64,000 nt of DNA. It comes from a virus (taxonomy: Duplodnaviria > Caudoviricetes). This document shows positions 8,410 to 28,470 of this stretch, one piece after another; positions within the stretch are counted from its first letter, which is position 1; every line of letters begins with the position of its first letter. Both the position numbers and the translations under genes were made by a program. The notes under the pieces were generated by a model, which made no database searches, had not been told where the DNA came from, and saw only the letters and a program-made list of their open reading frames with translations. The stretch lies in the IMG/VR virus record IMGVR_UViG_3300021255_000054; one strand, given 5' to 3'.

Positions 8410-8423
8410 GACCTATTTTATTT

Positions 8424-10837: not shown

Positions 10838-10944
10838 AGGACTTTTTCTTATGTGTTTTTAGATGTTAAACATCCAAAAATGCCTATTGACAAATGATCT
10901 TTATAGATATATAATTGTATCATCAAATGAAGGAGGAACGAGCA

Positions 10945-11259: not shown

Positions 11260-11382
11260 TGGAGTACAATTTTATTTTTAAAAGTTAGATGTTAAACATC
11301 CAATTTTTACCTATTGACATATAAGACCGGACATGTTATTATATACTTGTCCAAAGGGACAGAAACGAAAGGAGCGATTTCA

Positions 11383-11631: not shown

Positions 11632-11733
11632 TCCCAGTCTTATTATTTTAGATGTTAAACATCTAATTTATAAGACTTGCGAGACTCTAAAAGGTATGAT
11701 ATAATTAGGTATCAAATGAAGGAGGGATTCGCA

Positions 11734-11898
11734 ATGACTCAAGTTTATCTCGTTTGGTACACTCCAACTAATCAGACTATTGAAGCACTTTGGGGCGTAT
11801 ATGCAAATCGTAAAAATGCAGAACGAACCGCAGATTTTATTTTACTTAACCATTACGGCACAAATATTAAAATCAATGAAGAAGAAATAATGGACTAA
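11734..11898 (+). CDS. Small hypothetical protein (array unit)
   Basis: AAGGAGG SD; MTQVYLVW... Confidence 0.7.
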   Translation: MTQVYLVWYTPTNQTIEALWGVYANRKNAERTADFILLNHYGTNIKINEEEIMD

Positions 11899-12037
11899 AA
11901 TGAATTGCCCGAAACCGGGCAATTTCATTTTGAATATTTAGATGTTAAACATCTAACTTTATCTCTTGCAATATTCCCGAAAGTATGCTATTATATACTT
12001 GTCCGAAGGGACGAAAGAAAGAAAGGGGATTTGAAAC

Positions 12038-12205
12038 ATGATCGAGTATTATTGGATGCACAAAGAGGACGGTTACATCATTCCCGAAAGTCGGCTTGAA
12101 GATGATTGCTATCTCAACGGCTATGATGATGTGATTGACCCGTGTTCGGTTGAGTACGGCAATTTCAATCTCTATTATGAAAAGACCACCTTGCGCGTAA
12201 AGTAA
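12038..12205 (+). CDS. Small acidic hypothetical protein (not in ORF track)
   Basis: AAAGGGG SD; MIEYYWMHKEDG...RVK-TAA, followed by a terminator hairpin. Confidence 0.65.
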   Translation: MIEYYWMHKEDGYIIPESRLEDDCYLNGYDDVIDPCSVEYGNFNLYYEKTTLRVK

Positions 12206-12335
12206 AACGCGCGCATCCCGAAAGGGATGCATAAAAGTTAGATGTTAAACATCTAAATTTCCCTATTGACTTTCCTATATAAAGTGATATAATGATATTG
12301 TCCTCAGAGAGAGGATAAGAAAGGAGATTAGCATT

Positions 12336-12572
12336 ATGTGGTTGTTCTATTGTGACAATAGCGGATGGATTCCTATGGGGAACGATGGACAGATGAAAGT
12401 CCCGGCCCGCATCAGCACGCGCAAGCTGCACCAGCTGGCGGAAGCATTGCTCAGCGGACGAGCTGGAAGAATTTACCTTATGACAAGCTGGACCCAGCAG
12501 ATGTCCGAGCTTGGTCCGCGCGCTTTTGAAGAATATATCCAGCGCAATGGAAAAGTAGTGGTTCATTCGTGA
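12336..12572 (+). CDS. Hypothetical protein (array unit)
   Basis: AAGGAG SD; intact ORF. Confidence 0.75.
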   Translation: MWLFYCDNSGWIPMGNDGQMKVPARISTRKLHQLAEALLSGRAGRIYLMTSWTQQMSELGPRAFEEYIQRNGKVVVHS

Positions 12573-12689
12573 ACCACTATTTCATTTTAAAATATTTAGA
12601 TGTTAAACATCTAAAATAATATGTTGACATTTTCCCGATACTATGCTATTATATAATTGTCCAAAGGGACAGAAAGGATGGTAACTCAA

Positions 12690-12875
12690 ATGGATACTCG
12701 TTATATGATGACTACTACCTATACTGATTTCTCCACCAAATGTGAACGCAGTGATGATTTTTATACACTTATGCGAGCTGCATCTATTTACTGGGAAGAC
12801 CCAAGCTGCGTATATATTCATATTTGGGATAATGCGCTGGAAAAAGATATATTCTCATATGAACAGCCCTGTTAA
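12690..12875 (+). CDS. Small hypothetical protein (array unit)
   Basis: GAAAGG SD; intact ORF. Confidence 0.65.
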   Translation: MDTRYMMTTTYTDFSTKCERSDDFYTLMRAASIYWEDPSCVYIHIWDNALEKDIFSYEQPC

Positions 12876-12950
12876 GGGCTTTATTATTTTAGATGTTAAA
12901 CATCTAAATTCATCTCTTGACTTCTCTTATAATATATGATATTATACTAC

Positions 12951-13120
12951 TGTCGAAAGGGGGAAGGGAAGATGATTCCACCGGGTTAGTAGTCCCAAGG
13001 TCACGGGTTGGTACCGGACTGGCGGGATTATATGACGCAACCAACTGCCGCTAACTTGCCGTGGCGAAGCAAGCTGGTGAAATTGAGCCAATTGGCGGAT
13101 TGATCACCCGCCAATTCTTT
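12951..13120 (+). ncRNA. Putative structured small RNA occupying a whole array unit
   Basis: Palindrome and promoter, then a GC-rich segment with hairpins and terminator AATTGGCGG/CCGCCAATT-TTTT; no standard-code ORF. Confidence 0.55.
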
Positions 13121-13236
13121 TATGTAAATAATTAGATGTTAAACATCTAAAACTAACCCTTGACTTCTTCTCTTCTTTATGATATCATATAATTGTTCCA
13201 AGGGGAACGAAATAAATATGAGAGAAGGACACGAAC

Positions 13237-13476
13237 ATGACAATGACGATTGAAAAGAAACTCCGGGACTTCAACTTCTGGGGCGGTGCCGCTACCAACG
13301 CCGCGAAACTGACTCCTGAAGAGCTGGACACACTGGAATATCAGCTGGAAGAAATGATTGGCATTGACGAACCTTGGAGCACCACGGAGGTTAATGACTG
13401 GATGTGGTTCGACTTTGAAAGTATCTGCAACGAGTGGCTTAGAATTGATTATGAAGAAGTAATGGCGAGGACATAA
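13237..13476 (+). CDS. Acidic hypothetical protein (array unit)
   Basis: Intact ORF, SD, terminator. Confidence 0.75.
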   Translation: MTMTIEKKLRDFNFWGGAATNAAKLTPEELDTLEYQLEEMIGIDEPWSTTEVNDWMWFDFESICNEWLRIDYEEVMART

Positions 13477-13598
13477 TCCTCGCCTTTATTTCATTATAGA
13501 ATTTTAGATGTTAAACATCTAATTTTATAGTTTGACATTCTCCTTAAACTATGCTATTATATACTTGTTCCAAGGGGAACAGAAAGGAAGTATGAGAT

Positions 13599-13820
13599 AT
13601 GCTTAAAGTCACAAAGACATATGCGCGCACATTGTACGATATGGGAAAGCCCGTAATGATTATTCCGAATAAGATGCGCACTGATTCTTTTATGGCGTGC
13701 TGGCAAATAAAGCCGTTTAATGATCCAAACGCCAGCTTTGATAAGCTGGTAAATGCGATTAGCTATTATAATTGTTCTCCCGAAACTGGTTTGGGACTTG
13801 CATATTATACACAGGAATAA
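13599..13820 (+). CDS. Hypothetical protein (array unit)
   Basis: Intact ORF; YYNC..ETG motif. Confidence 0.75.
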   Translation: MLKVTKTYARTLYDMGKPVMIIPNKMRTDSFMACWQIKPFNDPNASFDKLVNAISYYNCSPETGLGLAYYTQE

Positions 13821-13942
13821 GGGCCTCGCCCTTATTTCATTTTAAAAAAGTTAGATGTTAAACATCTAATTTATATGATTGACTATTTCCTAATACTATG
13901 TTATAGTGTACTTGTCCAAAGGACAGAAAGGAAGTAAGAGCA

Positions 13943-14413
13943 ATGACAGATGAAGTTATCAAGGCTATGCAAGGCGACAAGAAGAAACACAAGGCGCGCA
14001 AATGGTGGCACAAGAACGGTTACAAGGTCATGCGCGTGATCCTGTTCCCGATCTGGATTGGTAGTATCCTGCTTGAAAAAGGGCGCAAATGGCTCAACAA
14101 TCAGCAGGAATGGAGCGAAGAACGCGCCACCGAAATTCTCAACTACTACATCCCGCGCGCGTCTAAATGGGATGATAAAGACAAGTGTCTTTACTTCTTC
14201 GACAATGGTATGGGCTGGAATTACAAACTTGCAAAGCGGTATCTCAAAAGGAAAGACCGCCGTTTCTGGAAAGTGCATTGCACTTGGTGGGGCGGCAAAA
14301 TGCGTACCCTGTTGATGGAAAAATTCGAGCTTGAAGGATTCACAAAAGAGCTTGGCAACTGTTCCGAAGGTTGGACAGAAATTTCTTTCGTACTGAATGA
14401 GAAAAAAGGTTAA
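13943..14413 (+). CDS. Trp/Lys-rich hypothetical protein with one hydrophobic segment
   Basis: Intact ORF, SD. Confidence 0.75.
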   Translation: MTDEVIKAMQGDKKKHKARKWWHKNGYKVMRVILFPIWIGSILLEKGRKWLNNQQEWSEERATEILNYYIPRASKWDDKDKCLYFFDNGMGWNYKLAKRYLKRKDRRFWKVHCTWWGGKMRTLLMEKFELEGFTKELGNCSEGWTEISFVLNEKKG

Positions 14414-14567
14414 CAAACCCTTTTTCTGTGGATGATAATTGTTAAGGCGCGCGGGCGCCTTTCTATTTTAGATGTTAAACATCTAACTTTTACCATTGAC
14501 TTTCTTATATAGGTATGATATATTATACTTGTTCCAAGAGAGAAGGAACAGAAAGGAAGTATGCAGT

Positions 14568-14822
14568 ATGACTAGAGTTGGGCCGTATCTGTGGGAAATT
14601 GATGTACAGGATATGAAACTTGAAGAACTTGACGCTCTACAGTCAATCGTCAATGATACGATCAAACAGCGCAGAATGGAACAGTGCTATGAAAAGAAAC
14701 TGCATGACCTGATTGATGAAGCCAAATCCAAGGGCGTATGCTTTAACTATAATGGTCTTTGCACTTGGATTTGTCTTACTGAAACACAGGACAAGATTTA
14801 CGCTTCTCCTGACGGGGATTAA
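14568..14822 (+). CDS. Hypothetical protein (array unit)
   Basis: AAAGGAAG SD; intact ORF. Confidence 0.65.
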   Translation: MTRVGPYLWEIDVQDMKLEELDALQSIVNDTIKQRRMEQCYEKKLHDLIDEAKSKGVCFNYNGLCTWICLTETQDKIYASPDGD

Positions 14823-14940
14823 TATCCCCAATTTTATTTTATTTTAAAATAAATTAGATGTTAAACATCTAACTTTCTCTGTTGACTTTCCTGTTACTAT
14901 ATGATATACTTACATCATCAAAGAAAGGGAGGCCACCACG

Positions 14941-15246
14941 ATGGAAATGACTTATCACGTAAAGGTTCAGAGGGCAAACCGGGTACAGCATATCATTAAT
15001 GATATCGGTATGGGCCAGATTGTTAAGGAGAAGTTTGTAAACAACTGCTACACCTGTATTACTGATACTGGCATTACCATTATCAAGTCAGCTGACAAGC
15101 TGAAGATTGTAACTATGTATGTTACAACCTACAGAGAGCTGGTAAAGGTTTATGAAGGAACCAAGCGGATTCCTCCGTACCTGAAGAAGCGGGTTGACCG
15201 CAATCAGTCTAAATATACTAATGATGGGAAAACAATTTGGAGGTAA
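14941..15246 (+). CDS. Hypothetical protein (array unit)
   Basis: GGGAGG SD; intact ORF. Confidence 0.75.
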   Translation: MEMTYHVKVQRANRVQHIINDIGMGQIVKEKFVNNCYTCITDTGITIIKSADKLKIVTMYVTTYRELVKVYEGTKRIPPYLKKRVDRNQSKYTNDGKTIWR

Positions 15247-15252
15247 GCTGAA

Positions 15253-15585
15253 ATGAAGATCGCAGTTACTCAATGGTATGAATTGACGGATGAACAGGTA
15301 CAAGAGTTAATTAATAATATGTATGAAGACTTAGACTCTGTACCAGCTATGAATTATGTTGAAGAAAGGTTAATGGATTATTGCGCTTCTATGTTCGCAG
15401 ATACTTTTGAAGTTACTAACAGCGATGATGAAGTTGAAGAAATCTACAATGAAGTTAAACGCAGGATTGAAAGCGACGTTAAATTACAGTTAAAGCGTAA
15501 AATTGCAGAACTTGAAAAAGAAATTGCTAAGAGTAGAGAAGAATTGAAAACCGCGCGGGAAAAACTTTTGAGAATGGACGAGTAA
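15253..15585 (+). CDS. Coiled-coil hypothetical protein
   Basis: GGAGGT SD; co-transcribed with the previous gene. Confidence 0.75.
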   Translation: MKIAVTQWYELTDEQVQELINNMYEDLDSVPAMNYVEERLMDYCASMFADTFEVTNSDDEVEEIYNEVKRRIESDVKLQLKRKIAELEKEIAKSREELKTAREKLLRMDE

Positions 15586-15679
15586 TCGTCCATTATTATA
15601 TTAGATGTTAAACATCTAATTCTAATATTTGACTTAATTTCATTTTTATGATATTATATCTATGCAAGGAGGGGATAAG

Positions 15680-16368
15680 ATGAGTAAGAAACAGAAACCC
15701 ACCCCTAAAACTTGGGTTGAAGTATTTCAAGGAGAACGGAAGGAGTTTCCACAGGGATATTGCGTCACTCGTATTATCCCAGACAAGCGCAAGAAAGCAC
15801 CAAAACATAAGGAAAGGGAGTTTGATGACTGATGCCTTGGTGGTGGGATGTTCGTAATGTAATCAATAATAAGTTGATTCGCTTTCTGTTAAATCGTTGT
15901 GTGATTGATAGTTGCACCCTTCGTAAAATTGTTTATAAAGTATCTAATTATGAATTACAGCCAATTATGGACGAGAAGGAAAAGGAGTTTGACGAATGAA
16001 ATATAAATGGGTTATCATGCAGGAACTTGAGGATAGTGGTTGCGCGAATCCTTATTTGATTGTAGATACCGAAAAGCGCGCCGAAGAACTATGCTATAAG
16101 TTAGAATCCGAAAACCCGGGCTTTATCTTCTGGTCTTATATGTGTAAGGAGGAATAATATGAATATTGTTACTCGTACCTATTACATCCCCCGTAACCAG
16201 ATTGGGCGCTATGTAATGAATTATATTGTTGAAAAGGTTGGTTGCTCTGTCGGTGAATTTAAGTTGAATCGTCAGGCCGAAACTATTCGTTTCTCTATCA
16301 CTTGCAAAATTAACGATGTACCTACCGTTGAAAAGATTTTGCGGCTTTATGATATGTTAGGGGAGTAA
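15680..16368 (+). CDS. Four translationally coupled small genes (15680-15832, 15832-15999, 15996-16157, 16159-16368)
   Basis: TGATG/ATGA overlaps, each with an SD, inside one palindrome-bounded unit. Confidence 0.65.
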
Positions 16369-16445
16369 TTTCCCCTTCAAATAATTAGATGTTAAACATC
16401 TAAAACAAAGCGTTGACTTTTCCCGAAATTTGAGTATAATAATAA

Positions 16446-16525
16446 TTGTTCCGAGGGACGGAAGGCGATGGAACACCGTGGCAAGTGCCGGCTTACCCAC
16501 AACTTGCGCACCGCCCCTCGAACAA
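16446..16525 (+). ncRNA. Putative ~80-nt hairpin RNA between tandem promoters
   Basis: TTGTTC(C)GAGGG pairs with CCCTCGAACAA leaving a bulged C; inner GCAAGT/ACTTGC stem. Confidence 0.55.
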
Positions 16526-16654
16526 AAAATTTTCAGACTAATACTTGACTTTCAAGTAGAAATCTGATATAATGAAGATGTTCCAAGGGAACAAAAATAA
16601 AATTGTGCAGGGCGGTCTGCCGTAAACTAAACCGCAGAGAAAAAGGAGTAAATT

Positions 16655-17146
16655 ATGAAGACTGCTGAAATTATTTCTAAGATCATGGAAATCCCCGGTG
16701 CTACTATGGGTCGTGCGAACAAGACCAACTTTATCGTTGTTCCTACTGAGGACGGTTACAGCAAGGTTAGCGTGACTGCCGCTCTGGCTAAGGACACCAA
16801 GAACCACAGCGCTTTCAATTATGAAGCCGCTGTTGCCGAGTACAAGGCTTGGGAAGCCGAAGCCGCTCTCCGCGCCGCTGAACGTGCTAACAAGCCCGTT
16901 AAGGTCAAGGGCCCCAACCCCGAAGCCGAAGCTCGCCGTCAGGCTCTTGATGCCGCCATCACCGCTCTTCCTTCCTTCACGAATGCTACTGCGACCGATG
17001 TGTTTAATATGTTTGCCGAGGGTGAACAGCCCAAGACCGTTATGCTTGTCGGTTCTGCTCTTAAGCGTCTTGTCGAAGCGGGCGTTGTAGTTGCTACCAA
17101 GTCCGAGGACGCCAAGGACAAGAAGACCTATTACACTAAGGCGTAA
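16655..17146 (+). CDS. Protein with C-terminal winged-helix domain
   Basis: ...VGSALKRLVEAGVVVATKSEDAKDKKTYYTKA; strong codon bias. Confidence 0.7.
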   Translation: MKTAEIISKIMEIPGATMGRANKTNFIVVPTEDGYSKVSVTAALAKDTKNHSAFNYEAAVAEYKAWEAEAALRAAERANKPVKVKGPNPEAEARRQALDAAITALPSFTNATATDVFNMFAEGEQPKTVMLVGSALKRLVEAGVVVATKSEDAKDKKTYYTKA

Positions 17147-17297
17147 TTCCCAGCCCCTAACGGGGCTTTTCTTTTTGGGATTCTTTTTAGATGTTAAACA
17201 TCTAACTTATTGTATTGCAATTTCATTTTAAATATGATATTATACTTATGTAAACGAAAGGAGAAGGATACTCCCTAAAACCAGAAAGGAAAATGTT

Positions 17298-17585
17298 ATG
17301 AAGATTTGGACAGTTGAAGAATATATTGTTCTAGATGAGATTAGTTACTGCGTTAGTCAATTTTATGGTCATTGGGAATTTTCTACCAAAGAAAAAGCAA
17401 TTCAAGCAGTATATAATCATCTGCGCGAACTTAATATTGACGAAGAAGACATTAAAAATCATATTAAAGAATGGGATGAAGATGATGAACTACATCATAT
17501 GAGAACTAAATTTGATAACTATGATATGTATGATTGCCGTTATGATATTCGGATGATCGAACTTGATCAGAAAATCGAAATTTAA
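17298..17585 (+). CDS. Hypothetical protein (array unit)
   Basis: Intact ORF; resembles 24517..24759 (MKIW/MKIY...S..EKA). Confidence 0.7.
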   Translation: MKIWTVEEYIVLDEISYCVSQFYGHWEFSTKEKAIQAVYNHLRELNIDEEDIKNHIKEWDEDDELHHMRTKFDNYDMYDCRYDIRMIELDQKIEI

Positions 17586-17725
17586 GGGCTTTGCGCCCTT
17601 TTCATATTTAGATGTTAAACATCTAATTTCATTTTAAAATTGCCTATTGACTTTCCTATTACTCTATGATATACTTATTCCAGAAAGTGAAGGAAAACAC
17701 TTAGAAACCAGAAAGGGATTGACTG

Positions 17726-18172
17726 ATGACGATTTGGTTTGATATGGATGGAACTATTGCGAACCTGTACGGCGTTGACGGTTGGCTTGATATGCTTCGA
17801 GCTTATGACCCGAAGCCCTACGCAGAAGCTGAAGTTATGCTGAATATGAGTGTGCTTGCGCGATATCTGCATAAGGCACAGCGAGCTGGAATCTCTATCG
17901 GGATTATCAGCTGGCTCAGCCGCTCCTCTACCCCTGAATATGATGAAGCTGTTGAAGAAACTAAGCTGGGCTGGCTTGCTGAACATCTCCCCTCTGTAGA
18001 TTGGGATGAAATCAACATTGTCGATTATGGTACCGATAAGTCCATCTTTATGAATAGTGATGAAGATATTCTGTTCGATGATGAACCCAAGAACCGTGAA
18101 AACTGGGATGGACTCGCTTTCACTCCCGATGAGATTATGGAAGTCTTGAAGGGACTGACGAAAGGGCGGTAA
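17726..18172 (+). CDS. HAD-family 5'(3')-nucleotidase-like phosphatase
   Basis: Motif I WFDMDGT; motif IV ILFDD. Confidence 0.8.
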   Translation: MTIWFDMDGTIANLYGVDGWLDMLRAYDPKPYAEAEVMLNMSVLARYLHKAQRAGISIGIISWLSRSSTPEYDEAVEETKLGWLAEHLPSVDWDEINIVDYGTDKSIFMNSDEDILFDDEPKNRENWDGLAFTPDEIMEVLKGLTKGR

Positions 18173-18293
18173 GCCCTTTTTATTATAATTAGATGTTAAA
18201 CATCTAATTATATTCGTTGACAATTTTATTTCAATTTGATATACTACTTATGAAAGTTGAAGGAAAACAACTCAAACCGGAAAGGGTACTCGT

Positions 18294-19052
18294 ATGTATG
18301 TAATGATCTTTGATACTGAAACTACCGGACTGGACAAGCCTTTCTGTTATGATGTAGGCTATTTTATCGTCGATACTGATAGGCATTTTACTGCAGAACA
18401 GCGGCATTTCGTTATTGAACAGGTTTGGCACAATCTGCCGCTTTTTGAATCTGCGTACTATAAAGACAAGCGTCCGCAGTATGTCCAGCTTATGCGCAAA
18501 CGTCTTGCCATTATGGACAAATGGGGTTACGTTATGCAACAGATTAAGCGCGATCTGCGTAAGTATAATGTAACTGACGCTTATGCTTACAATTCTGATT
18601 TTGATGACAAAGTGTTCGCTTTCAACTGTGATTGGTTTAAATGCAATAATCCTCTTGAAGATATCGCAATTCACGATATTTGGGGCTATGCCAGTCAGTA
18701 TATCACAAATACTCCCGAATATAGGGCTTTCTGTGAAACACATAGTTTCTTTACTGATACGGGTAACTACAAGGCCAGTGCAGAAATTGTCTATCGGTAT
18801 CTTTCCGGTGTAGTGGATTTTGAAGAAAAGCATATGGGGCTTTATGACGTAGGGATTGAAGCGTTTATTCTTGATGAATGTATTCAACTTGGAGCAGAAT
18901 GGAATCTTGACTATAAGGTCAACCGCATTCTCCCCAGACAGATTGAAAAACCTTTTCAGATTTTCGTAGACGGCGAATGTATTGTATCGGACAATTATAT
19001 TAAGAAATATGTTCGTAACGATGTATACAAATTCACTACGGCCCAGTCCTAA
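18294..19052 (+). CDS. DEDDh 3'-5' exonuclease
   Basis: FDTETTG, AYNSDFD, HMGLYD. Confidence 0.85.
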   Translation: MYVMIFDTETTGLDKPFCYDVGYFIVDTDRHFTAEQRHFVIEQVWHNLPLFESAYYKDKRPQYVQLMRKRLAIMDKWGYVMQQIKRDLRKYNVTDAYAYNSDFDDKVFAFNCDWFKCNNPLEDIAIHDIWGYASQYITNTPEYRAFCETHSFFTDTGNYKASAEIVYRYLSGVVDFEEKHMGLYDVGIEAFILDECIQLGAEWNLDYKVNRILPRQIEKPFQIFVDGECIVSDNYIKKYVRNDVYKFTTAQS

Positions 19053-19131
19053 AACTGGGCCTTTCTTTCTTAGATGTTAAACATCTAAAACAAGTAATTG
19101 ACTTTTCCTAAAATTGTGATATACTTATAAC

Positions 19132-19232
19132 TGTCAAGAGGAGATGCGAGGTAGAGAAAATGAGAAGCGCGCCTCTGAGTTCGAGAGACAAGGGCAAAAG
19201 AAATTCAAAAGAATTTCAAAAAACCTCTTGAC
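19132..19232 (+). ncRNA. Putative leader/small RNA between tandem promoters
   Basis: TGTCAAGAGG at the first start site is the exact complement of CCTCTTGACA, which contains the -35 of the second promoter. Confidence 0.45.
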
Positions 19233-19307
19233 AACTTCCCAAACTTATGATATACTTAATACGAAAACAGGGGAAGGAAAACCCCACAAACCAGAAAGGA
19301 TACTATT

Positions 19308-19646
19308 ATGAAGAAGACTTCTATGGAAAGACTCGTTGGTTACATCAATGACAATGCCGTTACTGACCTGTTTGATATTCGTGATGAGATGACGGCCGAA
19401 CTCAAGAAGAACAAGGATAAGGCGGACGCTAACCGCGCCCTGTATGAGGAAGCGCACGATATCGTGATCGACGCTATCCCGACCGAAACTCCCGTCACCG
19501 TTGCCGAACTGTTTGAAGCGATTGAGTCCGAACTGCCGGAAGGCTTCACCAAGGCTAAGGTGAATTACGCTCTTACCCATTACTGGGAAGAGGATGTGAA
19601 TAAGATTCCCGGTAAGGTTAACTCCTATACCCGTAAGGTGAGCTAA
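19308..19646 (+). CDS. Coiled-coil plus winged-helix protein (paralog of 23523..23852)
   Basis: TVAELFEAIESELPEGFTKAKVNYALTHYW...GKVNSY. Confidence 0.75.
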   Translation: MKKTSMERLVGYINDNAVTDLFDIRDEMTAELKKNKDKADANRALYEEAHDIVIDAIPTETPVTVAELFEAIESELPEGFTKAKVNYALTHYWEEDVNKIPGKVNSYTRKVS

Positions 19647-19803
19647 TGCTCACCTTTTTCTTTTACAAGGAATTAGATGTTAAACATCTAAAATTGTATA
19701 CAGTATTCTTTTAAAAAAATGCTTGACAATTTTTCAAATTTATAGTATACTTATTCCAGAAACGGAGAAGGAAAACTCCACAAACCAGAGAGGAGCAATG
19801 CTT

Positions 19804-20214
19804 ATGAATAAGGCACAGCTTGAAACCGCTATTCGCAATGACTTTCTTGATTCTATTATGAAGTATATCTCTGAATCCCGTGAAACTGATGTGCTCCCTG
19901 TTAGCGCAAACGAACTTGCCGTTCCTTGTCTGGATGCTGAGGGCAACGAAAAGTGGGTTCTGATTAAGGTTTCTATTCCTCGTGGTAGCCGTAACGGCGA
20001 AGGCGGATACGAACCTTATGATGGTTATTCTGTCGCAGAAGATTACCAGTTTGACCTTGCTGATAAGGCAAAAAAGAAACGTGTAGCGGAAGAACAGAAA
20101 GCCAAGAAAATCGCGGCTGATGAAAAGAAGCGTGCGGAAAAGAAAGCGCTTGCCGAAGCGAATAAGAATCTGAAAGAACTCCGTAAGATTAAGGTTACTC
20201 CCGAAAGGGAGTAA
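19804..20214 (+). CDS. Hypothetical protein with Lys-rich coiled-coil tail
   Basis: Intact ORF; architecture similar to the next gene. Confidence 0.7.
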   Translation: MNKAQLETAIRNDFLDSIMKYISESRETDVLPVSANELAVPCLDAEGNEKWVLIKVSIPRGSRNGEGGYEPYDGYSVAEDYQFDLADKAKKKRVAEEQKAKKIAADEKKRAEKKALAEANKNLKELRKIKVTPERE

Positions 20215-20341
20215 CCCAATTTCATCCCGAGTTATTAGATGTTAAACATCTAATTATTCTATGTTGACATTTCCCAATATCTATGCTATACTATCCACGA
20301 AAGGTGAAGGAAAACACCAGAAAACCAGAAAGGAAATTGAA

Positions 20342-20722
20342 ATGCCTAAGATTTCTAAGACTGTTGTTGACAAGGCTCTGCGTGATGGTATTTTCTTTGA
20401 TATGTTCCAGAATGATTGTGGAATGTATGACTATGTAAAAATCAATGACCGCCAGTATGGCACTATCATTACCGATTTGAACGGCATTGAACGCTATGTG
20501 CGCATTGGCGCGATTGTCGCAGAAGAACGTGAGGATATGACTGCGCGCGAACTTATGCAGAAGGAAATTGATGAGTATAAGGCCAAGCAGGCGGAAAAGG
20601 CCGAAAAGGCTAAGAAGAAGGAAGAAAAGATTGCCAAGGATAAGGCCAAGCGCCAGAAGGAACAGGAACAGGAAGAAGAAGATGACCCTAACCAGTTTCT
20701 TCCTAATGAAGTGACGGTTTAA
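20342..20722 (+). CDS. Hypothetical protein with Lys/Glu coiled-coil tail
   Basis: AAAGGA SD; intact ORF. Confidence 0.7.
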   Translation: MPKISKTVVDKALRDGIFFDMFQNDCGMYDYVKINDRQYGTIITDLNGIERYVRIGAIVAEEREDMTARELMQKEIDEYKAKQAEKAEKAKKKEEKIAKDKAKRQKEQEQEEEDDPNQFLPNEVTV

Positions 20723-20740
20723 TAGAAAGGAATGATAATA

Positions 20741-21010
20741 ATGTTGAAAGTCACAACCTATCCTCACATTGAAGATTCTGAAATTGCTCGTCTGTGCGGT
20801 GAAGATGTAGCCGAACATATGTCTCTTCACTATGAAGCCAAAAATGGTACAAGTGAAAGCTTTTGTGTTCTGACAGAAGAAGAAATCAAAGAACTTGAAG
20901 AAGATGAAGATGATTGGTTTGATGAAAAATGGAAACTTGGCCTGACTAAAATGTTACTGGAAAATGGCTTCAAGCACGGCGATAGAGTATATATTGATTT
21001 CTTTTGGTAA
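20741..21010 (+). CDS. Acidic hypothetical protein
   Basis: Intact ORF. Confidence 0.65.
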   Translation: MLKVTTYPHIEDSEIARLCGEDVAEHMSLHYEAKNGTSESFCVLTEEEIKELEEDEDDWFDEKWKLGLTKMLLENGFKHGDRVYIDFFW

Positions 21011-21027
21011 GAGTGGAGGAAAAGAAA

Positions 21028-21219
21028 ATGCCTGATGAAAAATGCCCCAATTGCTTATCGGGAGAATATGATGTTGATAATTACTGGGATGATTTTGATG
21101 AAGACGGTGGTATCAGAGTATGGGAATGTATTTGTTCCTCCTGTCATAAAAAATTTGATATCACATATGAATATAAATGCATCAAAACAACAGTTGAAAT
21201 AGAGGTTAGCGCAAGCTAA
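21028..21219 (+). CDS. Small Zn-ribbon protein
   Basis: CPNC...CSSC. Confidence 0.65.
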   Translation: MPDEKCPNCLSGEYDVDNYWDDFDEDGGIRVWECICSSCHKKFDITYEYKCIKTTVEIEVSAS

Positions 21220-21354
21220 CCTCTTTCTTTATATATTAGATGTTAAACATCTAATTCTTTCCCTTGCAATTTCCCTATAACTATGGTATTATATCATTGT
21301 TCCAAGGGGAACACGAAAGAGGAAGGATACCTCACAAACCAGAAAGGTTACTAT

Positions 21355-22341
21355 ATGCGCAAAGAACTCCGTTATATGGTTTTGGACACTGAGACCGCCA
21401 CTCTTCCCTTTGCTAATGAAATTGCCCAGAATAATCCTGAGAAGAAGAAAAAAATTGCTATCGCTCGCCCTCTTGTGTATGATATTGGTTGGACTATCAC
21501 CAACCGCAAGGGCGAGATTTTGGATAAGAAGCAGTTTCTGATTGCCGAAACTTTTGCCGTTCCCGCCGTGTTCAATACTGCATATTATGCAGAAAAGCGG
21601 CCGCTCTATCTGGAAATGTTGAAAGAGAACAAGACCTCTATCAAGCCGTGGGGCGAAGTGATGGAACTCTTTGTTGAAGATCTTCAGCAGGTCGATGCCG
21701 TTGGGGCATACAATGCAATGTTTGACTTCAAGAAAGCAATTCCCTTTACTGAACTGTACATTAACAAACTGTACAGCCCTGATTATCAGAATTGGGAGTT
21801 CCTTCAGCGCAAGATGTGTACTAAGATTGCTAACGAGAAGTATCAGAAGAAGGAAGAAAAAGAATTTGATGGTGATTTCTTCACCTTCCGTGGCAAGTCT
21901 TATCCTCTGTTTGACCTTTGGGGACTTGCGACCAAGCACCTTTTGAATAACGCCACTTATAAGAAACAGTGCCTTGACCATAATCTTTTAACCGCAAGCG
22001 GAACATTCTTCAAGACTAGCGCCGAATCTTCTTTTCAATATCTATGCGACCGCTATGATTTTGAAGAAAGTCACACCGCACTTGATGACGCTATGATTGA
22101 AACCCATATTCTTTCTTGTGTAGCCAAGAAGCACGCTATCTCTACTGGAATTACTTTCTTCCCCTTCCGTGAATTGGGTACTACTACTGAATTTGTAATG
22201 CGTAGGAAAACTCCTCACATTAATGAAGTAATGGTAGTATATGAAGCAATCATAGCATATATTGAAACCAAGGAAGAATCTCGGTACGTGGTTGGATTGC
22301 GTAATATGTTGAAAGAATTGGAAGAATATATGGCGGGATAA
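21355..22341 (+). CDS. DEDDh 3'-5' exonuclease (second paralog)
   Basis: LDTETAT, AYNAMFD, HTALDDA; shares AYY..KRP and SAE motifs with 18294..19052. Confidence 0.85.
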   Translation: MRKELRYMVLDTETATLPFANEIAQNNPEKKKKIAIARPLVYDIGWTITNRKGEILDKKQFLIAETFAVPAVFNTAYYAEKRPLYLEMLKENKTSIKPWGEVMELFVEDLQQVDAVGAYNAMFDFKKAIPFTELYINKLYSPDYQNWEFLQRKMCTKIANEKYQKKEEKEFDGDFFTFRGKSYPLFDLWGLATKHLLNNATYKKQCLDHNLLTASGTFFKTSAESSFQYLCDRYDFEESHTALDDAMIETHILSCVAKKHAISTGITFFPFRELGTTTEFVMRRKTPHINEVMVVYEAIIAYIETKEESRYVVGLRNMLKELEEYMAG

Positions 22342-22473
22342 CCGCCATATTTCATTTCAGATTATTAGATGTTAAACATCTAAAAAGAAATATTGACTTT
22401 CTCCTAAAATTGAGTATAATATAATCATCAGGTGAAGGAAAACACCGAAACACCAGAAAGGAAGTTTAAAACT

Positions 22474-22683
22474 ATGAAGAAGCCGATTACCGTTCGTGTC
22501 AAGAAAACACTGACTTTTGATGAAACTGACGTGTGTAGCATCGCCAAAGATATGTCATATACTTTCTGGAACTCAGGATATTTTGAAGACATTGAACCCA
22601 GCGATATTGATGATGAAGATTTCGCAGGTCTGGTTCGCGCCATCGCCGATGAGTTTCAGAAAATTGTGGAGGAAGATAAATAA
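22474..22683 (+). CDS. Small acidic hypothetical protein
   Basis: Conserved leader and SD. Confidence 0.65.
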   Translation: MKKPITVRVKKTLTFDETDVCSIAKDMSYTFWNSGYFEDIEPSDIDDEDFAGLVRAIADEFQKIVEEDK

Positions 22684-22786
22684 TATGGAAATTAATGTGC
22701 GTGCGAAACATATATTCAATGAGGACTAATAGTCCTCTTTTTTATTTATAATAATTAGATGTTAAACATCTAATAAAAAATGGCGC

Positions 22787-23205
22787 TTATCGCGCCAACT
22801 TCAGAATCCGTTTGAACCAACTAACTTTCTCTTCGTAAATAGGTTCAACAGTAATTTCATAGATAATCTTATGCTTTTCTCTATCCATCAAATACAGACG
22901 AGGACTTCCCATATAATACCATACAGTTTTTCCTCTCTCGTGAACAAAATCCAAAATAGCTTTATCAGGAATATGTCTATCAAATTCCTGACCGCCATAC
23001 ATAATATCCAAACCATCTTTCTTAGGGATATACACAAGGCGCTTTTTCATTATCCAATCACCACCTGAATTTCCATATTCTCTCCACACTTATACTGAAT
23101 CAAATCATTAGCCCGCTTTTCCGCTTCTTCCATAGTATTAAAAACTTCATTGACCTCAACAAAATAACCAAGGGGCCAGCACGTACCAGTCAGACGATAC
23201 TTCAT
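22787..23205 (-). CDS. Inverted unit with two coupled genes (23205-23050 and 23050-22787)
   Basis: Minus-strand TTGACT/TATAAT promoter 9 nt from palindrome 23274; TAATG overlap. Confidence 0.65.
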
Positions 23206-23336
23206 TCCATCATCGCTCCCTTCATTTGATAATTACATTATACTCAGATTTTCCTAAAAGTCAACTACCATTATTAGATGTTAAACATCTAACTATTAGT
23301 GGTTGACTTTTCTCTAATTTGTGATATACTTATAAC

Positions 23337-23404
23337 TGTCAGAGGGAGAACGGGAGCGGAAACAAATCTCCTTGGAAACAGAAGACCCGATGTTTCTCTT
23401 GACC
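23337..23404 (+). ncRNA. Putative ~70-nt hairpin RNA between tandem promoters
   Basis: GTCAGAGGGAGAA pairs with TTTCTCTTGAC; inner CGGG/CCCG stem. Confidence 0.45.
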
Positions 23405-23522
23405 GAAAATAAAAGGGAGAAAATTTTCGGAAACCTCTTGACAAGCTTCCAAAACTGTGGTACAATAACCACGAAAGATGAAGGGAAGGAAAACCCTAAA
23501 AACCAGAAAGGAAATGAAACCT

Positions 23523-23852
23523 ATGAAAAAGACTACTATGACCGCCATCGTTACCGCTCTGACTGCTATCGACTCTGAGAAGTATTCCGACCTGATCGCC
23601 GAAGTTAATGCCGAACTGAACAAGGGCGCGGAGCAGAAGCAGAAGAATGCCGATGCCTATGAGTCCATCCACGATCTGGTTGTTGGCAATCTGGGCGATG
23701 CTCCTTGCACCTGCGCCGAACTGTATGAAGCCATCAAGGATGAACTGCCTGATGGTATGGGCAAGGGCAAGGTTCAGTATGCTCTGACTCACCTGTGGCA
23801 GGATGAGATTGTGAAGATTGAGGGTAAGCCGAATACCTATCGGAGGGCGTAA
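23523..23852 (+). CDS. Coiled-coil plus winged-helix protein
   Basis: TCAELYEAIKDELPDGMGKGKVQYALTHLW...EGKPNTY. Confidence 0.75.
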   Translation: MKKTTMTAIVTALTAIDSEKYSDLIAEVNAELNKGAEQKQKNADAYESIHDLVVGNLGDAPCTCAELYEAIKDELPDGMGKGKVQYALTHLWQDEIVKIEGKPNTYRRA

Positions 23853-23862
23853 GCCCTCCACG

Positions 23863-24201
23863 GGTTGTGCGGTAAGACATCGGCTCGCACAGATACGTAG
23901 AACATCGGTGGATTAAGCGTATCAACCACGAGGAGATTTCTGAAGGTTTACAGTGTGGCTAAACAACTAAAGCCTTCCCACGAGGGTTTCCAAGGGCTTT
24001 CAGTGTGGTTAAACAACATAAGCCCTTTTATATGGCGATGGAGGGACACGGCCTACCCCACAGTTAGCAAGTTCGACTCTTGCCGTTGCCACGACTTACC
24101 TAGTGGCAGAAGCCCTATCCACTTAAAAACGTGGGCGGATGAAGTAGACCATCAAAGCAACTACAGTGAGGGCGCTTACCCCACAACCGCCTTCGGGCGG
24201 T
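23863..24201 (+). ncRNA. ~330-nt structured RNA with a tRNA-like domain lacking an anticodon arm
   Basis: Terminal 14-bp stem 23863-76/24175-88; duplicated hairpins; acceptor-like GGCGATG/CGTTGCC plus T-arm GCAAG-TTCGACT-CTTGC; terminator 24186-24206. Confidence 0.7.
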
Positions 24202-24311
24202 ATTTTTATTTTCAATTATTAGATGTTAAACATCTAATTAAAGGTATTGCAATTTTCCTATAATATGATATAATAGCATTGTTCCAAGAGGAACGGAAAG
24301 GATGAAGTAAA

Positions 24312-24515
24312 ATGGAAAAACCTATTCGCAAATTTCAGTACATCAATGCATATGGTATCAAGAAACAACTTAATGTATATGAAATGGTCAATAATAAGTA
24401 TCCAGTAGAACTGTGGGCAACTAGATATGGGGAATATTGTGGGTCAGGTGAAATGACGAAACAAGAACTTAACGATTATTTAGAGCACTTTGGTATTACG
24501 GAAAGGATGGAATAA
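24312..24515 (+). CDS. Small hypothetical protein
   Basis: Intact ORF, SD. Confidence 0.7.
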   Translation: MEKPIRKFQYINAYGIKKQLNVYEMVNNKYPVELWATRYGEYCGSGEMTKQELNDYLEHFGITERME

Positions 24516-24516
24516 A

Positions 24517-24759
24517 ATGAAAATTTATGAAGTTATCGAGTATGTAGATAATGCAGAAAATGCTTTTGGCTACTATTCTTCTCTTGAAAAGGCACAGCAG
24601 GGAATTTTGACACGAGTAAAAGATGCTTATACAGATGAAGAGATGAAAGCTTTTCATTTTGATGAAGATGGATATGGCTATTCGACCACAGAAAATGAAT
24701 GGGTAGCCGCTTGTGATTATGTAATCTTTGAACACGAATTGGATAAGGAGATGGAGTAA
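24517..24759 (+). CDS. Small acidic hypothetical protein
   Basis: Intact ORF. Confidence 0.7.
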   Translation: MKIYEVIEYVDNAENAFGYYSSLEKAQQGILTRVKDAYTDEEMKAFHFDEDGYGYSTTENEWVAACDYVIFEHELDKEME

Positions 24760-24760
24760 A

Positions 24761-25015
24761 ATGCAGACAATTAAAAACTGGTTCGGCATTGAAACTTCCT
24801 ATAAGTTTGAATGGAATGACCTTCGTTGCGGCATTACTATCTTGAATGTAGTTCTGATTATGCTCTTTGGCTTGCAGGTATCTTGGTTCGGGCTTGCAAT
24901 CGCGCTCTTTGGTGTGTGTAAAGACCTCTCCCAGCATCGGCATATCAATGATATTCTTATGCACTTGTCTAGTGTAGTATTGAATGTATACTTCCTTTCC
25001 CTTCTGTATAGGTAG
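24761..25015 (+). CDS. Small membrane protein (ends at TAG)
   Basis: Two to three hydrophobic segments; the TAG lies in the terminator stem. Confidence 0.65.
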   Translation: MQTIKNWFGIETSYKFEWNDLRCGITILNVVLIMLFGLQVSWFGLAIALFGVCKDLSQHRHINDILMHLSSVVLNVYFLSLLYR

Positions 25016-25127
25016 GCAATGCCTATCTTCCATACTTAGATGTTAAACATCTAAAAGTTTCTCTTGCATTTTTTCCAAAGTATGATATAATTATATCGTT
25101 CCAAGGGAACAGAAAGGATGATTGAGA

Positions 25128-25560
25128 ATGCGTGAACTATATGAAAAATACTACACTATCAGATTGTGGTTTCAGCCCGATGACCGTGTGACCCCAGACA
25201 TCATTGACCTTGAAGGCGAGTATGATTCTGAAGAAGAAGCAATAGTATTCGCGCGAGAACACATTCCTCTTACTTTTGGATGGGAACATATTATTGTTCC
25301 TCATTATCGAAAACTTTCAAATTTAAAGTTGACAAATACTCCTAATGGTGATATAATGATGATGATCTCGAAAGGAAAGGAAAGGAGTAATGAGAGTGAA
25401 TAACATCATTCCGATTGATTCTGAGGAAAAGGAACTTTGTTGTTTGTGTATATTAGGTCTTGTGCTTTATGATTATATGACACCTTCGGCAAGACAATTA
25501 TATGATACTCTTACTGAAGAAGACAAGCAAGAGATTAAGAAAAAATTTATAAAAGGATAA
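25128..25560 (+). CDS. Two small hypothetical genes (25128-25403, 25390-25560)
   Basis: SDs present; internal TTGACA/TATAAT promoter near 25329. Confidence 0.55.
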
Positions 25561-25648
25561 TGAGTATGAAGTATCAGTACTACAAGGGAGAGTAAAACTC
25601 TCCCTTTTATTTTTAGATGTTAAACATCTAAATAAAAAAGTATGCACA

Positions 25649-26197
25649 TTAGTGCATACAATTCGTGAAATTACAGTAGCCAGCCGAACAAGCATAATCT
25701 ACAACTACTCCCTTTCCCTTATACATACCCACATTCCAAGCGTGCAGGTCACACATATATTTCTTCAGGAAAGCCCGTTCATCATCATCCCAACCATACT
25801 CCATTTCAGCATAATCATAGTTCCCAACATGATTGACTTTCCGCATAGCATAATAATACTTTCCGTCAATCATAAAGCGGTACATAGGCGCGAGAAGATA
25901 GGAATAAGGAGTCCGACTCAGCTTCTGGTAAACTTTATATTCCTGTTCGCATCCACCAATACGGCCGCAAGCCTTATCATCATAATCTATCTTAATCACA
26001 TAGTCCGGCCCAATCAGGCAGATACGCGCGCTCCCATAATCCATCTCAATATGGCGATGATATTCCATATTAAAGGACTCTACTCCTTCTTCTACATAGC
26101 CACGGCGATCATATTTATTCATTATATCAAAATCAGGAATATATTGCGCAAACTGCTTCATAAACTTTTCAGCCCGAATCTGCCAAGGATTAGCCAT
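25649..26197 (-). CDS. Protein-kinase-like protein
   Basis: GSARI...VIK, helix-C Glu (EQEY), catalytic loop DLHAWN, DYA in the DFG position. Confidence 0.75.
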   Translation of the reverse strand: MANPWQIRAEKFMKQFAQYIPDFDIMNKYDRRGYVEEGVESFNMEYHRHIEMDYGSARICLIGPDYVIKIDYDDKACGRIGGCEQEYKVYQKLSRTPYSYLLAPMYRFMIDGKYYYAMRKVNHVGNYDYAEMEYGWDDDERAFLKKYMCDLHAWNVGMYKGKGVVVDYACSAGYCNFTNCMH

Positions 26198-26307
26198 CTC
26201 TCAAACACCCCTTTCTTGATTACGGGATAAGTATATCATAAGTTAAGAAAAGAGTCAATAGGATATTTTAGATGTTTAACATCTAACTTACTGAGGGGCT
26301 TTCGCCC

Positions 26308-26751
26308 TCAGTCGATAATATCTTCAACAGGAACATTATACCATTCCTTAATCCGTTTATACAACATCCGTTTAGTACCACCAAACATCCAACTATCCTC
26401 AGTTTCTACTAACTGATTAGTATCAAACAAAACAATATCAAGCACATCACTATAATAGCCATTCTGCTCATTGTAACACGGCACGAAGAAAGACCGCTGT
26501 CCGCATAACCTAATTCCTGCTCTCCTTCTCCACGCTACTTCTTCAATTCGCAAATCAGAAAAATCTGTATCCATCAATCCGGCTTCATCTTTAATATAAT
26601 CCCAATTAGCATATACATTCTCACAGCAATCCTGACTATGAGTATCGATCAGAAGCCACCCATTATCAAATAAAATACCACCATTGGCATCAAATGAAGT
26701 CTTACTCAGAATCTCATCACCATCATAAACAAACCGCGCAATCTTAACCAT
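26308..26751 (-). CDS. Hypothetical protein (QDCCE / NGYYS family)
   Basis: Intact ORF with the conserved leader on the minus strand. Confidence 0.7.
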   Translation of the reverse strand: MVKIARFVYDGDEILSKTSFDANGGILFDNGWLLIDTHSQDCCENVYANWDYIKDEAGLMDTDFSDLRIEEVAWRRRAGIRLCGQRSFFVPCYNEQNGYYSDVLDIVLFDTNQLVETEDSWMFGGTKRMLYKRIKEWYNVPVEDIID

Positions 26752-26868
26752 AACTTACTCCCTTCTGGTTTCTAAGGTATCCTTCCTTTTATGTATGTAT
26801 TATATAATAAAGTAATAGAAAAGTCAATAAGGAATTTTAGATGTTAAACATCTAACTTCTCAAGACCG

Positions 26869-27273
26869 TCAAACGGTCTTGCAATAGAAACACCATTTAA
26901 TATCAAAAATATATTTCAATTCAAATCCTTCTGATTCAAGCAGATGCCGCATTCCCGCATTATCATCCCACGGAGTTGCCCCAACATTACCGTGTACAAT
27001 TTTAGTAATTTCTTGTAGAGCATATCGAGCGATACCTTTACCTTGATTTTTCTTATTACAAATACATAATCTTTTAATAGCGGTATAATTATATTGCGGT
27101 TCGGGTACAAGCGAAACAGTCGCCAATACTTTCTCGTTATCCGCAACAACATACAGCCGCCGCTGTCTATAATCCAAGTCCACTTGTGCCGGAGTAAGAT
27201 ACGTAAGATGCTTATATCTTAAAGCATTAATAACTTTCATTAAATCTTTATGTGTTGCTAATCTCAATTCCAT
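26869..27273 (-). CDS. GNAT-family acetyltransferase
   Basis: Acetyl-CoA motif QGKGIA; N..MRHLLESEGF. Confidence 0.8.
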   Translation of the reverse strand: MELRLATHKDLMKVINALRYKHLTYLTPAQVDLDYRQRRLYVVADNEKVLATVSLVPEPQYNYTAIKRLCICNKKNQGKGIARYALQEITKIVHGNVGATPWDDNAGMRHLLESEGFELKYIFDIKWCFYCKTV

Positions 27274-27373
27274 ACCATACGCTCCCTTCAGGTGATAGCT
27301 ATATTATAGCATGAATAGGAGAAAAGTCAAGCGACATTTTTAGATGTATTACATCTAAATTTATAAAGAAGGC

Positions 27374-27988
27374 TCACGCCTTCTTCTCTGCAATTATTTT
27401 AAATATAGCCGGATTACTAAATGCTTCACATAATTTATAATAAGCAGTTTCATTTACATAAAACCATTCATTAGCTCTCTGAGCTTTAGCATAAGCATAT
27501 TTTTCTAAATATTGATGGCAAAAACGTTCTGCTCTATCCGACTTTGTAGTTTCATAATATCCACCAATATATAGCATAGGATTATATGTAGCATAAGAAG
27601 ATACACGAGAATAAAGATTCTTCGCTCTTCCAACCTTAACCAAATAATATTTCTCGCCAGCGGGATTGATTCCAATCATTCCAAGAAAGTACACTCCCTC
27701 TGTACAAGGCAGCTCATCTGTTTTGGCACAATTGATTTCTAATGTAGGAATTTCATCTTTTAATGTTTCATCTTTTTTATGCACTCCCGCTTTATCATAT
27801 ACATAATGAAATTCTAAGCCATATCTGGCATTTGCACTCAAAGGGGAACGAAAATCATGATAAATACATTCCAATGTAGCTTCAGAAATATTTCCATCTT
27901 CATCTGAAAAGAACTCAACCATATTATTCCAGTGATATGTAGCAATACGTTCTTCAATTTCCTGTTCATATTTATACATTCTTTCCAT
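27374..27988 (-). CDS. T5orf172/GIY-YIG-like domain protein
   Basis: GVYFL...VKVGRAKNLYSRVSSY..NP...EWF. Confidence 0.7.
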   Translation of the reverse strand: MERMYKYEQEIEERIATYHWNNMVEFFSDEDGNISEATLECIYHDFRSPLSANARYGLEFHYVYDKAGVHKKDETLKDEIPTLEINCAKTDELPCTEGVYFLGMIGINPAGEKYYLVKVGRAKNLYSRVSSYATYNPMLYIGGYYETTKSDRAERFCHQYLEKYAYAKAQRANEWFYVNETAYYKLCEAFSNPAIFKIIAEKKA

Positions 27989-28087
27989 TCTCCCTTCACT
28001 TCATGAGTACATTATATCAGAAATTTATGAAAAGTCAATAATATAAATTAGATGTTATACATCTAATTTCACTCCCTGTCAAATATT

Positions 28088-28470
28088 GTATCCAATATCC
28101 AGTATCCAGTATCCAAAATCCCGCATCCAGTATCCAATCGCATCTCGCGCCCACTGTCAAATACTTGACAAGCTGGAAAAGCTGGAACTTGCCGCGCAGA
28201 ATTAACTAAGCAAATTAAGCTGGAAGTTCTATTCCTACCGAGCTGGAAAAAAATTAATCCCACGAAATTTTATATTACGAGAAGCTGGAAGATTCCCGTA
28301 TGAGATAGGAATACAAGGAGACGCCGCAATATGAAACTCCGTGGGAGCTGGAAATTTGCCGCTAAAAATCCGCTGAGAAGCTGGAATTGGATACTGTATA
28401 CAATTTGAATTTAAGCTGGAATTGTATACAAAATACTGGATACAAAATACTGGATACTGTATACAATTTC
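28088..28470. repeat. Repeat-rich non-coding region: 8 AGCTGGAA direct repeats bracketed by inverted ATCCAGT/ACTGGAT clusters
   Basis: tatccagtatccagtatcc at 28097-28135; atactggataca at 28386-28465; agctggaa at 28171-28421. Confidence 0.85.

Follow-up and report, generated by a model that had tools for sequence, protein, structure and literature searches.

The stretch of DNA analyzed here (the window, 64,000 nucleotides [nt] of virus record IMGVR_UViG_3300021255_000054; Duplodnaviria, Caudoviricetes) belongs to a phage whose 189,572-bp genome is a complete virus record with direct terminal repeats, and it contains an array of small early-gene cassettes whose junctions share a 19-bp palindrome. 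The palindrome is a perfect dyad, TTAGATGT-N3-ACATCTAA, in which two 8-bp arms surround a 3-nt center. With up to three mismatches allowed, the window has 35 such sites, compared with 0.09 expected from shuffled sequences; all 35 are confined to positions 9485 to 28066, there are none elsewhere in the complete genome, and the copies at 22755, 23274, and 25613 are exact 19-mers (Table 1). The gaps that hold the sites are organized in the same order: an intrinsic terminator, which varies in sequence and has a T tract, the palindrome, about 9 nt that are not conserved, and then a promoter, with a near-consensus -35 box and an extended -10 box, followed by a 5' leader hairpin and a ribosome-binding site.

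Around the three exact copies, a plus-strand gene (22474-22683) is followed by two minus-strand genes (22787-23050 and 23050-23205), a run of plus-strand genes from 23514-23852 through 25390-25560, and a minus-strand gene (25649-26197). An earlier note on this DNA had placed the copies at 22755 and 25613 at convergent junctions without promoters, and this proves correct: facing terminators lie on both sides of each copy, and no promoter-like match of at least 10/12 adjoins either one. The same is true of its placement of the copy at 23274 between divergent promoters, where the -35 box is 9 nt away on the minus strand and 10 nt away on the plus strand. The rule of one site per junction, also proposed there, applies to every terminator-bounded junction in the array, but it does not extend to four strong secondary promoters inside cassettes, which have no palindrome (at ~16545, ~19228, 23438-23466, and 25329-25357; these window positions are genome coordinates minus 81,717). 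Those at ~19228 and 23438 precede two winged-helix paralogues, that at ~16545 precedes gene 16655-17146, and that at 25329 is inside gene 25128-25403, just before gene 25390-25560. We note that in the cassettes at 16385, 19070, and 23274, transcription from promoter P1 would give a leader of ~100 nt.

The palindrome recurs in relatives of this phage. The exact 19-mer is found in 56 stretches from ~25 viral contigs, and when the center is left free there are 555 further unique sites with identical arms; five relatives of 141 to 167 kb have 31 to 40 sites each, in one block of ~16 to 19 kb. The array proteins of the relatives share only 45 to 90% identity with those of the window, but the 8-bp arms do not differ. 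As for the center, its triplet is variable (TAA, TTA, ATA, AAT/ATT, TCA, and others), and in relative L053 it is mostly AAT or ATT. Arm variant TTGGATGT is found at the left end of the window array, where the six leftmost sites (9485 to 11303) have a G at position 3 or a C at position 17, giving TTGGATGT-type half-sites in one or both arms; these sites may be a subclass with lower affinity or different timing, or may result from local gene conversion. A second variant, TTAGGTGT, occurs in one relative, in a single arm about as frequently as in both. Because variants are single-sided as often as two-sided, the arm changes are not compensatory. The arms are perfect in 93% of co-directional, 87% of terminator-terminator, and 87% of promoter-promoter sites. 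Nothing relevant was found in a literature search on the two half-site strings, and a megablast search with window positions 20 to 30 kb against a phage collection had no match.

The distance between the palindrome and the promoter is under close constraint. Of 472 promoter-flanked cases, 367 (78%) have a gap of 9 nt to the -35 box and 432 a gap of 8 to 10 nt; among gaps longer than 10 nt, all but one of 35 measure 18 to 21, 28 to 31, or 39 to 40 nt, corresponding to increments of about 10, 20, and 30 nt, and the longer gaps hold A-rich (A-tract) inserts that are mutually unrelated. Since the sequence of the spacer is not conserved, it is apparently the spacing itself that is selected, with helical phase kept, and so strict and phased a gap argues for a promoter-linked role of the palindrome. 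The earlier note had raised the spacing as an argument for a transcriptional role and against its own recombinational proposal, and on this point the larger set of sites agrees with it. The distance from terminator to palindrome is looser, with a mode of 8 nt and a range of 4 to 19 nt. In the array, 25 of 32 strong promoters have a site, and in the other 170 kb of the genome none of 40 strong promoters has one.

With the most frequent gap, the site reaches from about -63 to -45 and is centered near -54. The centers of the half-sites are 11 bp apart, about one helical turn, with a free spacer between them, and this spacing together with the unconstrained center is the geometry of an operator for a dimeric helix-turn-helix protein. 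Two properties expected of an operator are present, the first being a dyad with half-sites about one turn apart around an unconstrained spacer, and the second a fixed, helically phased position relative to promoters. From these we infer that the palindrome is a putative binding site for a dimeric, sequence-specific regulator. It likely acts as DNA, because the copy at 23274 is upstream of both predicted promoters, and so should be untranscribed, and because the hairpin that it could form as RNA is weak (-5.8 kcal/mol).

Sorted by junction, 366 of the 555 sites are co-directional (terminator-promoter), 40 are terminator-terminator, 13 are promoter-promoter, and the remaining 136 could not be classified on one or both sides. 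Facing terminators were also scanned for independently, and of the 36 genuine pairs found, 35 have a site between them (32 perfect); nine apparent site-less pairs were discounted, the palindrome itself having been called as a terminator. Many relatives have two opposed blocks that meet at one terminator-terminator site, as in the window, and adjacent convergent-divergent pairs flank cassettes oriented opposite to their neighbors.

Six cassette gains or losses were found between relatives of 90 to 97% identity, and in five of the six the crossover is confined to the palindrome. In these five, the extra cassette of the longer genome is flanked by two palindromes, the shorter genome has a single one, and the alignments overlap in the palindrome only; one of the five crossovers is at a convergent terminator-terminator junction. 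In the clearest case, the sites at 818 and 1427 of L007 are represented by a single terminator-terminator site at L030:1871, with flanks that lack homology. The center triplets of the two L007 sites differ (TTG and TAT), and the surviving triplet places the inferred crossover in the shared left arm. Because this crossover is at a terminator-terminator site, a site without a promoter appears to be a working docking point. The sixth gain or loss used homology at a ribosome-binding site inside an operon. More generally, 34 of 68 ends of high-identity alignments fall within 40 nt of a site center, compared with ~16% expected. Inversion is also evident, in that one cassette has opposite orientations in L046 (1445-1933) and L008 (5937-6422) when compared with a neighboring cassette that both share; the two copies are ~75% identical, homology stops at the two palindromes, and there is a promoter-promoter junction at L008:7567. 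Comparison of the relatives shows the palindrome to be the crossover point in cassette gain, loss, and flipping. The polarity of the central base was also tried as a test of inversion, but it follows the direction in which genes are transcribed by no more than 2:1 and is uninformative.

These comparisons support one part of the earlier proposal, that inversion or insertion by crossover inside a symmetric site generated the arrangement, through five of the six gains and losses and the L046/L008 inversion; they do not support an active inversion switch. A six-frame search of the complete genome found no match at E<=1 to resolvase (PF00239), tyrosine recombinase (PF00589), or Y1 transposase (PF01797) domains, in searches in which control genomes scored. 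There is no inversion polymorphism at >=80% identity among the fetched relatives, and partner sites can differ in their center, as in L007. Moreover, the homologue of gene 22787-23050 keeps its strand: in L007 it is on the minus strand (8089-8397), within the last minus cassette there (7833 to 8457), and in L057 it is on the minus-block strand, in an operon with a homologue of 26869-27273. Given this position in both relatives, the layout in the window may come from movement of the plus cassettes at 23293-25612 into a minus block, and these may equally be the segment that moved, rather than 22774-23273, for which flipping had been envisaged. A near-identical strain with the 22755 junction, in which to look for the other orientation, was sought in viral contigs without a match.

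We favor the explanation, with a probability of roughly 0.6, that the palindrome serves two purposes at the boundaries within the early-gene array, as a regulatory site and as a crossover point. A dimeric DNA-binding protein would occupy the palindrome near -54, in helical phase with the host-type early promoters, and one protein could regulate some 30 promoters together; shutoff is its most likely effect, since the promoters are already near consensus. Because the palindrome is symmetric and is the only sequence common to all junctions, recombination between any two copies could excise, insert, or flip a promoter-gene-terminator cassette, and crossover between symmetric sites would preserve one copy per junction, the 9-nt promoter gap, and the terminator gap in either orientation. 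Such crossovers would yield terminator-site-terminator and promoter-site-promoter junctions like those at 22755, 25613, and 23274. The copies at convergent junctions would be scars that double as reusable docking points, not switches, and the enzymology could be that of recombination at short homology, of template switching, or of bridging through the bound protein.

Several considerations weigh against this explanation. First, the binder of the palindrome, its binding, and the sign of the effect are all predictions. Second, an identity of 19 bp is short for ordinary homologous recombination. Third, terminator-terminator junctions outnumber promoter-promoter ones (46 to 15 in one count), and the pattern must therefore partly reflect block-level architecture rather than single inversions. 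Fourth, the identity of the arms across phages could in part result from continual exchange of cassettes, not from recognition by a protein. Finally, sites at convergent junctions are about as perfect as those adjoining promoters (87% and 93%), which could mean that they have a selected function of their own, perhaps as a roadblock or insulator.

The last of these leads to the best of the alternatives, albeit an unlikely one, that the palindrome is selected at every junction for control of transcription, as an operator and roadblock only, and that recombination at it is incidental. At promoters it would regulate initiation. At convergent junctions, the bound protein would back up the terminators, blocking both read-through and antisense transcription, or would insulate supercoiling. 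The presence of a site in 35 of 36 terminator-terminator pairs, the conservation of these sites to a similar degree as promoter-adjacent ones, and the strict -35 spacing all agree with this, as does one orthologous convergent junction (~87% local identity) in which all 19 nt are kept while the adjacent T tract has changed. However, each of the two convergent junctions in the window is already equipped with a pair of good intrinsic terminators, a roadblock works only after its binder has been made, and the location of the crossover precisely in the site in five of six gains and losses is hard to call incidental where flanking homology is lacking.

A more radical possibility, which we regard as doubtful, is a previously unrecognized form of protein-guided cassette exchange in a family of large TAG-recoded phages. 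In it, a single bound protein would both silence ~30 early promoters and synapse pairs of sites, and entire promoter-gene-terminator cassettes would be excised, reinserted, or flipped without a known recombinase; the early or anti-host genes of these phages would in effect have an 'integron with promoters'. The winged-helix paralogues, which have their own palindrome-free promoters, are possible candidates for the protein of such a system. More generally, they are our lead as candidate binders of the palindrome, on the basis of the modeled fold. The family has two members here (19308-19646 and 23514-23852) and one to four in the fetched stretches of the relatives, and its predicted structure (predicted local distance difference test [pLDDT], 91.8) has a long helical N-terminal part and a C-terminal winged helix, with weak fold matches to Z-alpha, PadR, Fur, and forkhead domains. 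The protein encoded at 16655-17146 was considered as a further relative, but hhalign finds it unrelated. A search of the genome for HTH_DeoR had no match, and one for HTH_11 gave two sub-threshold matches, both outside the array. A second lead toward a binder, from Bacillaceae, is described below with the host-factor alternative.

It is still less probable that the palindrome is a dedicated att-like recombination site, serving integron-like, promoter-carrying cassettes without any role in transcription. This would account for one site per junction in every orientation, crossovers inside the site without flanking homology, the cassette inversion bounded by sites, and arms that are invariant across diverged phages. 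It is difficult to reconcile with the lack of resolvase/invertase, tyrosine recombinase, and Y1 transposase domain matches in the six-frame search of the complete genome, and less easily reconciled with the different centers of the partner sites in L007 (where the inferred crossover is in the shared left arm), as classical recombinases need identical crossover cores; the symmetric, 2-nt staggered cut of serine recombinases is also ill-suited to an odd, 3-nt center. Recombination alone would leave the phased 9-nt gap to the -35 box, with its unconserved spacer, unexplained, and no recent inversion polymorphism is seen among the relatives.

We consider it very unlikely that a host factor is the binder, the phage having copied the operator of a host regulator or nucleoid protein and so tied early expression to the state of the host. 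The idea draws on a bacterial counterpart: in ~15 genomes of Bacillus, Neobacillus, and Priestia, a -10 box is directly followed by the same 8-N3-8 dyad (for example, L093:4966-5340; loci L078-L135), which is downstream of a CodY-box-like sequence and precedes a 13-codon open frame and a 73-amino-acid DeoR-type helix-turn-helix gene. This Bacillaceae dyad is likely an autoregulated operator, and we know of no description of its arrangement with a DeoR-type gene. Its location before a helix-turn-helix gene indicates that such a dyad can serve as an operator, and bacterial regulators can presumably read it; an activator, moreover, would need to be present at infection. However, across 596 Gb of prokaryote genomes the other matches appear to be isolated chance occurrences or phage-like contigs, no regulon was found in Clostridia, the likely hosts, and near-consensus promoters need no activator. 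We give almost no weight to a purely structural role, as part of a terminator, a signal for RNA stability or processing, or a cruciform: the palindrome is perfect and starts right behind the terminator T tract, mostly 8 nt from the stem, but its hairpin is weak beside the much stronger dedicated terminators, it comes after these and at 23274 is upstream of both predicted promoters, its arm variants are not compensatory, and its stem sequence is invariant where pure structure would drift.

The array is a new form of promoter-terminator cassette of the type represented by the promoter-early stem-loops (PeSLs), which are the closest described system. PeSLs are known from the T4-type phages RB49, phi1, PST, and nt-1, in which the terminator is formed by the stem-loop and cassettes are exchanged at any point of the extended module homology (PMC2839356, PMC4122927). 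As with PeSLs, modules of a terminator and a sigma-70-type early promoter lie between orphan genes in hyperplastic regions, and they are the points of cassette insertion, deletion, and replacement between close relatives. Unlike PeSLs, the terminators here vary, and a separate, invariant 19-bp palindrome stands between terminator and promoter, 9 nt from the -35 box; it carries the crossover without flanking homology, and its symmetry allows either orientation. The phage is also one that reads TAG as sense, and the likeness claimed is in module architecture and cassette shuffling, not in a T4-like classification.

Other systems are less similar. The stoperators bound by gp71 of phage L5 are asymmetric 13-mers in transcribed regions, set in one orientation and serving a prophage repressor. 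The palindrome resembles them in that dozens of copies of one short protein-binding motif in short intergenic gaps would give genome-wide control to a single protein, but it is symmetric and lies between terminator and promoter, outside transcripts. Stoperators of the cluster A mycobacteriophages are mentioned in PMC12266134 and PMC9934374. The search of the complete genome, which found neither an integrase nor a resolvase domain, gives no hint of lysogeny, and a repressor of the temperate-phage kind is not indicated. For these reasons the palindrome is not a stoperator of the L5 type. The terminal-repeat module of SPO1 and the pre-early region of T5 also pack small early genes closely, with a strong host-type promoter and a terminator for every gene, and in this they are like the array described here; to our knowledge, neither has an invariant dyad at a fixed distance from promoters. 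In integron attC sites and the hix, gix, and cix sites, too, repeated symmetric sites bound cassettes and act as crossovers, and inversion is possible; in contrast, no recombinase gene was found here, promoters are part of the cassettes, the site is much shorter than attC, and its center varies between partner sites. The array does not show the defining features of invertase or integron systems.

The phage is a large one of the rumen/gut type in which TAG is read as an amino acid. When TAG is taken as sense, the summed length of open frames of at least 200 amino acids rises from 18,734 to 42,421 amino acids, and one frame of 4,525 amino acids opens that holds 129 TAGs; the 25 tRNAs include one with anticodon CUA (genome positions 165546-165630). 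TAG is read as sense in the late/structural blocks, and the palindrome array is TAG-free: no open frame of at least 250 amino acids in the array needs the sense reading, whereas frames in the flanking blocks do. The freedom from TAG, together with the host-type promoters, suggests that the array is the standard-code part of a code-switching phage, and phage code switching of this kind has been described (PMC10879173).

The array proteins are almost all orphans, and a comparison of ~30 of them with Pfam, NCBIfam, and PHROGs gave only weak matches or matches of unknown function, with no annotated regulator. There is a weak DUF6958 match, proteins 18492-19052 and 21355-22341 both match phrog_20187, of unknown function (E values of 4e-25 and 8e-28), and protein 17726-18172 has a 5'-nucleotidase (NT5C) domain. 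Short contigs binned in metagenome-assembled genomes of Acutalibacteraceae, Oscillospiraceae, and Bacillota (L074, L105, L134, and L136) have one to five palindromes, with cassettes laid out as in the array; they probably come from related phages and were mis-binned, and they hint weakly at an Oscillospirales host.

Several other features of the array are of note. The 5' leader hairpins that follow the -10 boxes (for example, at 24276-24300, 22425-22460, and 17655-17700) are of two classes, the first with a GTTCC/GGAAC stem and an AAGG loop and the second with a covarying 4-bp stem (GGTG/CACC, GTTG/CAAC, AGTG/CACT, or GGGG/CCCC) and a fixed AAGGAAAA loop; they are probably 5' stabilizers or translation signals. 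Between gene 23514-23852 and the terminator at 24186 is a GC-rich, structured, non-coding stretch of ~340 nt (23860-24200) with a T-arm-like motif and two hairpins that resemble each other; scans against Rfam and for tRNAs had no match in the window, this stretch included. Both edges of the array (9710-9760 and 28085-28465) have clusters of AGCTGGAA repeats, and these edge repeats are also present in a relative (L053:10217-10298). At the right edge there are at least eight AGCTGGAA copies, flanked by inverted clusters of TATCCAG/CTGGATA repeats, and this cluster looks iteron- or origin-like.

Table 1. Palindromes, promoters, terminators, and selected genes of the early-gene array (window positions)
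Feature	Position	Strand	Comment
Early-gene cassette array	9485-28066		35 sites; TAG-free small genes, sigma-A-type promoters, intrinsic terminators
Terminator closing plus cassette 22365-22745	22721-22745	+	Stem 22721-22737 and T run
Palindrome, convergent terminator-terminator junction	22755-22773		Exact 19-mer
Terminator of minus-strand two-gene cassette	22781-22797	-	Intrinsic
Minus-strand cassette	22787-23205	-	Genes 23050-23205 (51 amino acids) and 22787-23050 (87 amino acids); no known family
Promoter of minus-strand cassette	23237-23264	-	-35 at 23264-23259, 9 nt from palindrome
Palindrome between two divergent predicted promoters	23274-23292		Exact 19-mer; upstream of both
Promoter P1	23303-23330	+	-35 at 23303, 10 nt from palindrome
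Promoter P2, without palindrome	23438-23466	+	Precedes winged-helix gene; same P2 family in L053
Winged-helix paralogue	23514-23852	+	Other copy at 19308-19646; candidate palindrome reader
Palindrome, co-directional terminator-promoter junction	24219-24237		Terminator 24186-24201, promoter 24247-24274
Palindrome, co-directional junction	25036-25054		Promoter on its right
Terminator ending plus block	25584-25606	+	Intrinsic
Palindrome where plus and minus blocks converge	25613-25631		Exact 19-mer; terminator-terminator; many relatives share this block-level layout
Terminator of minus-strand gene 25649-26197	25640-25659	-	Intrinsic

Large phages carry their rapidly changing genes for host takeover and anti-defense in early-gene arrays, and in this family of 140- to 190-kb phages the joints of the array are one strictly conserved 19-bp element. 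The element offers a handle both on the joint switching of dozens of early promoters and on the shuffling of orphan genes between phages, and its fixed position near -54 predicts a regulator that should be retrievable with the DNA. That crossovers fall cleanly within a 19-bp dyad, with no known recombinase, suggests that cassettes can be exchanged in either orientation with nothing more than a short symmetric site, and the motif can be used as a marker of transcription unit boundaries in these uncultured genomes.

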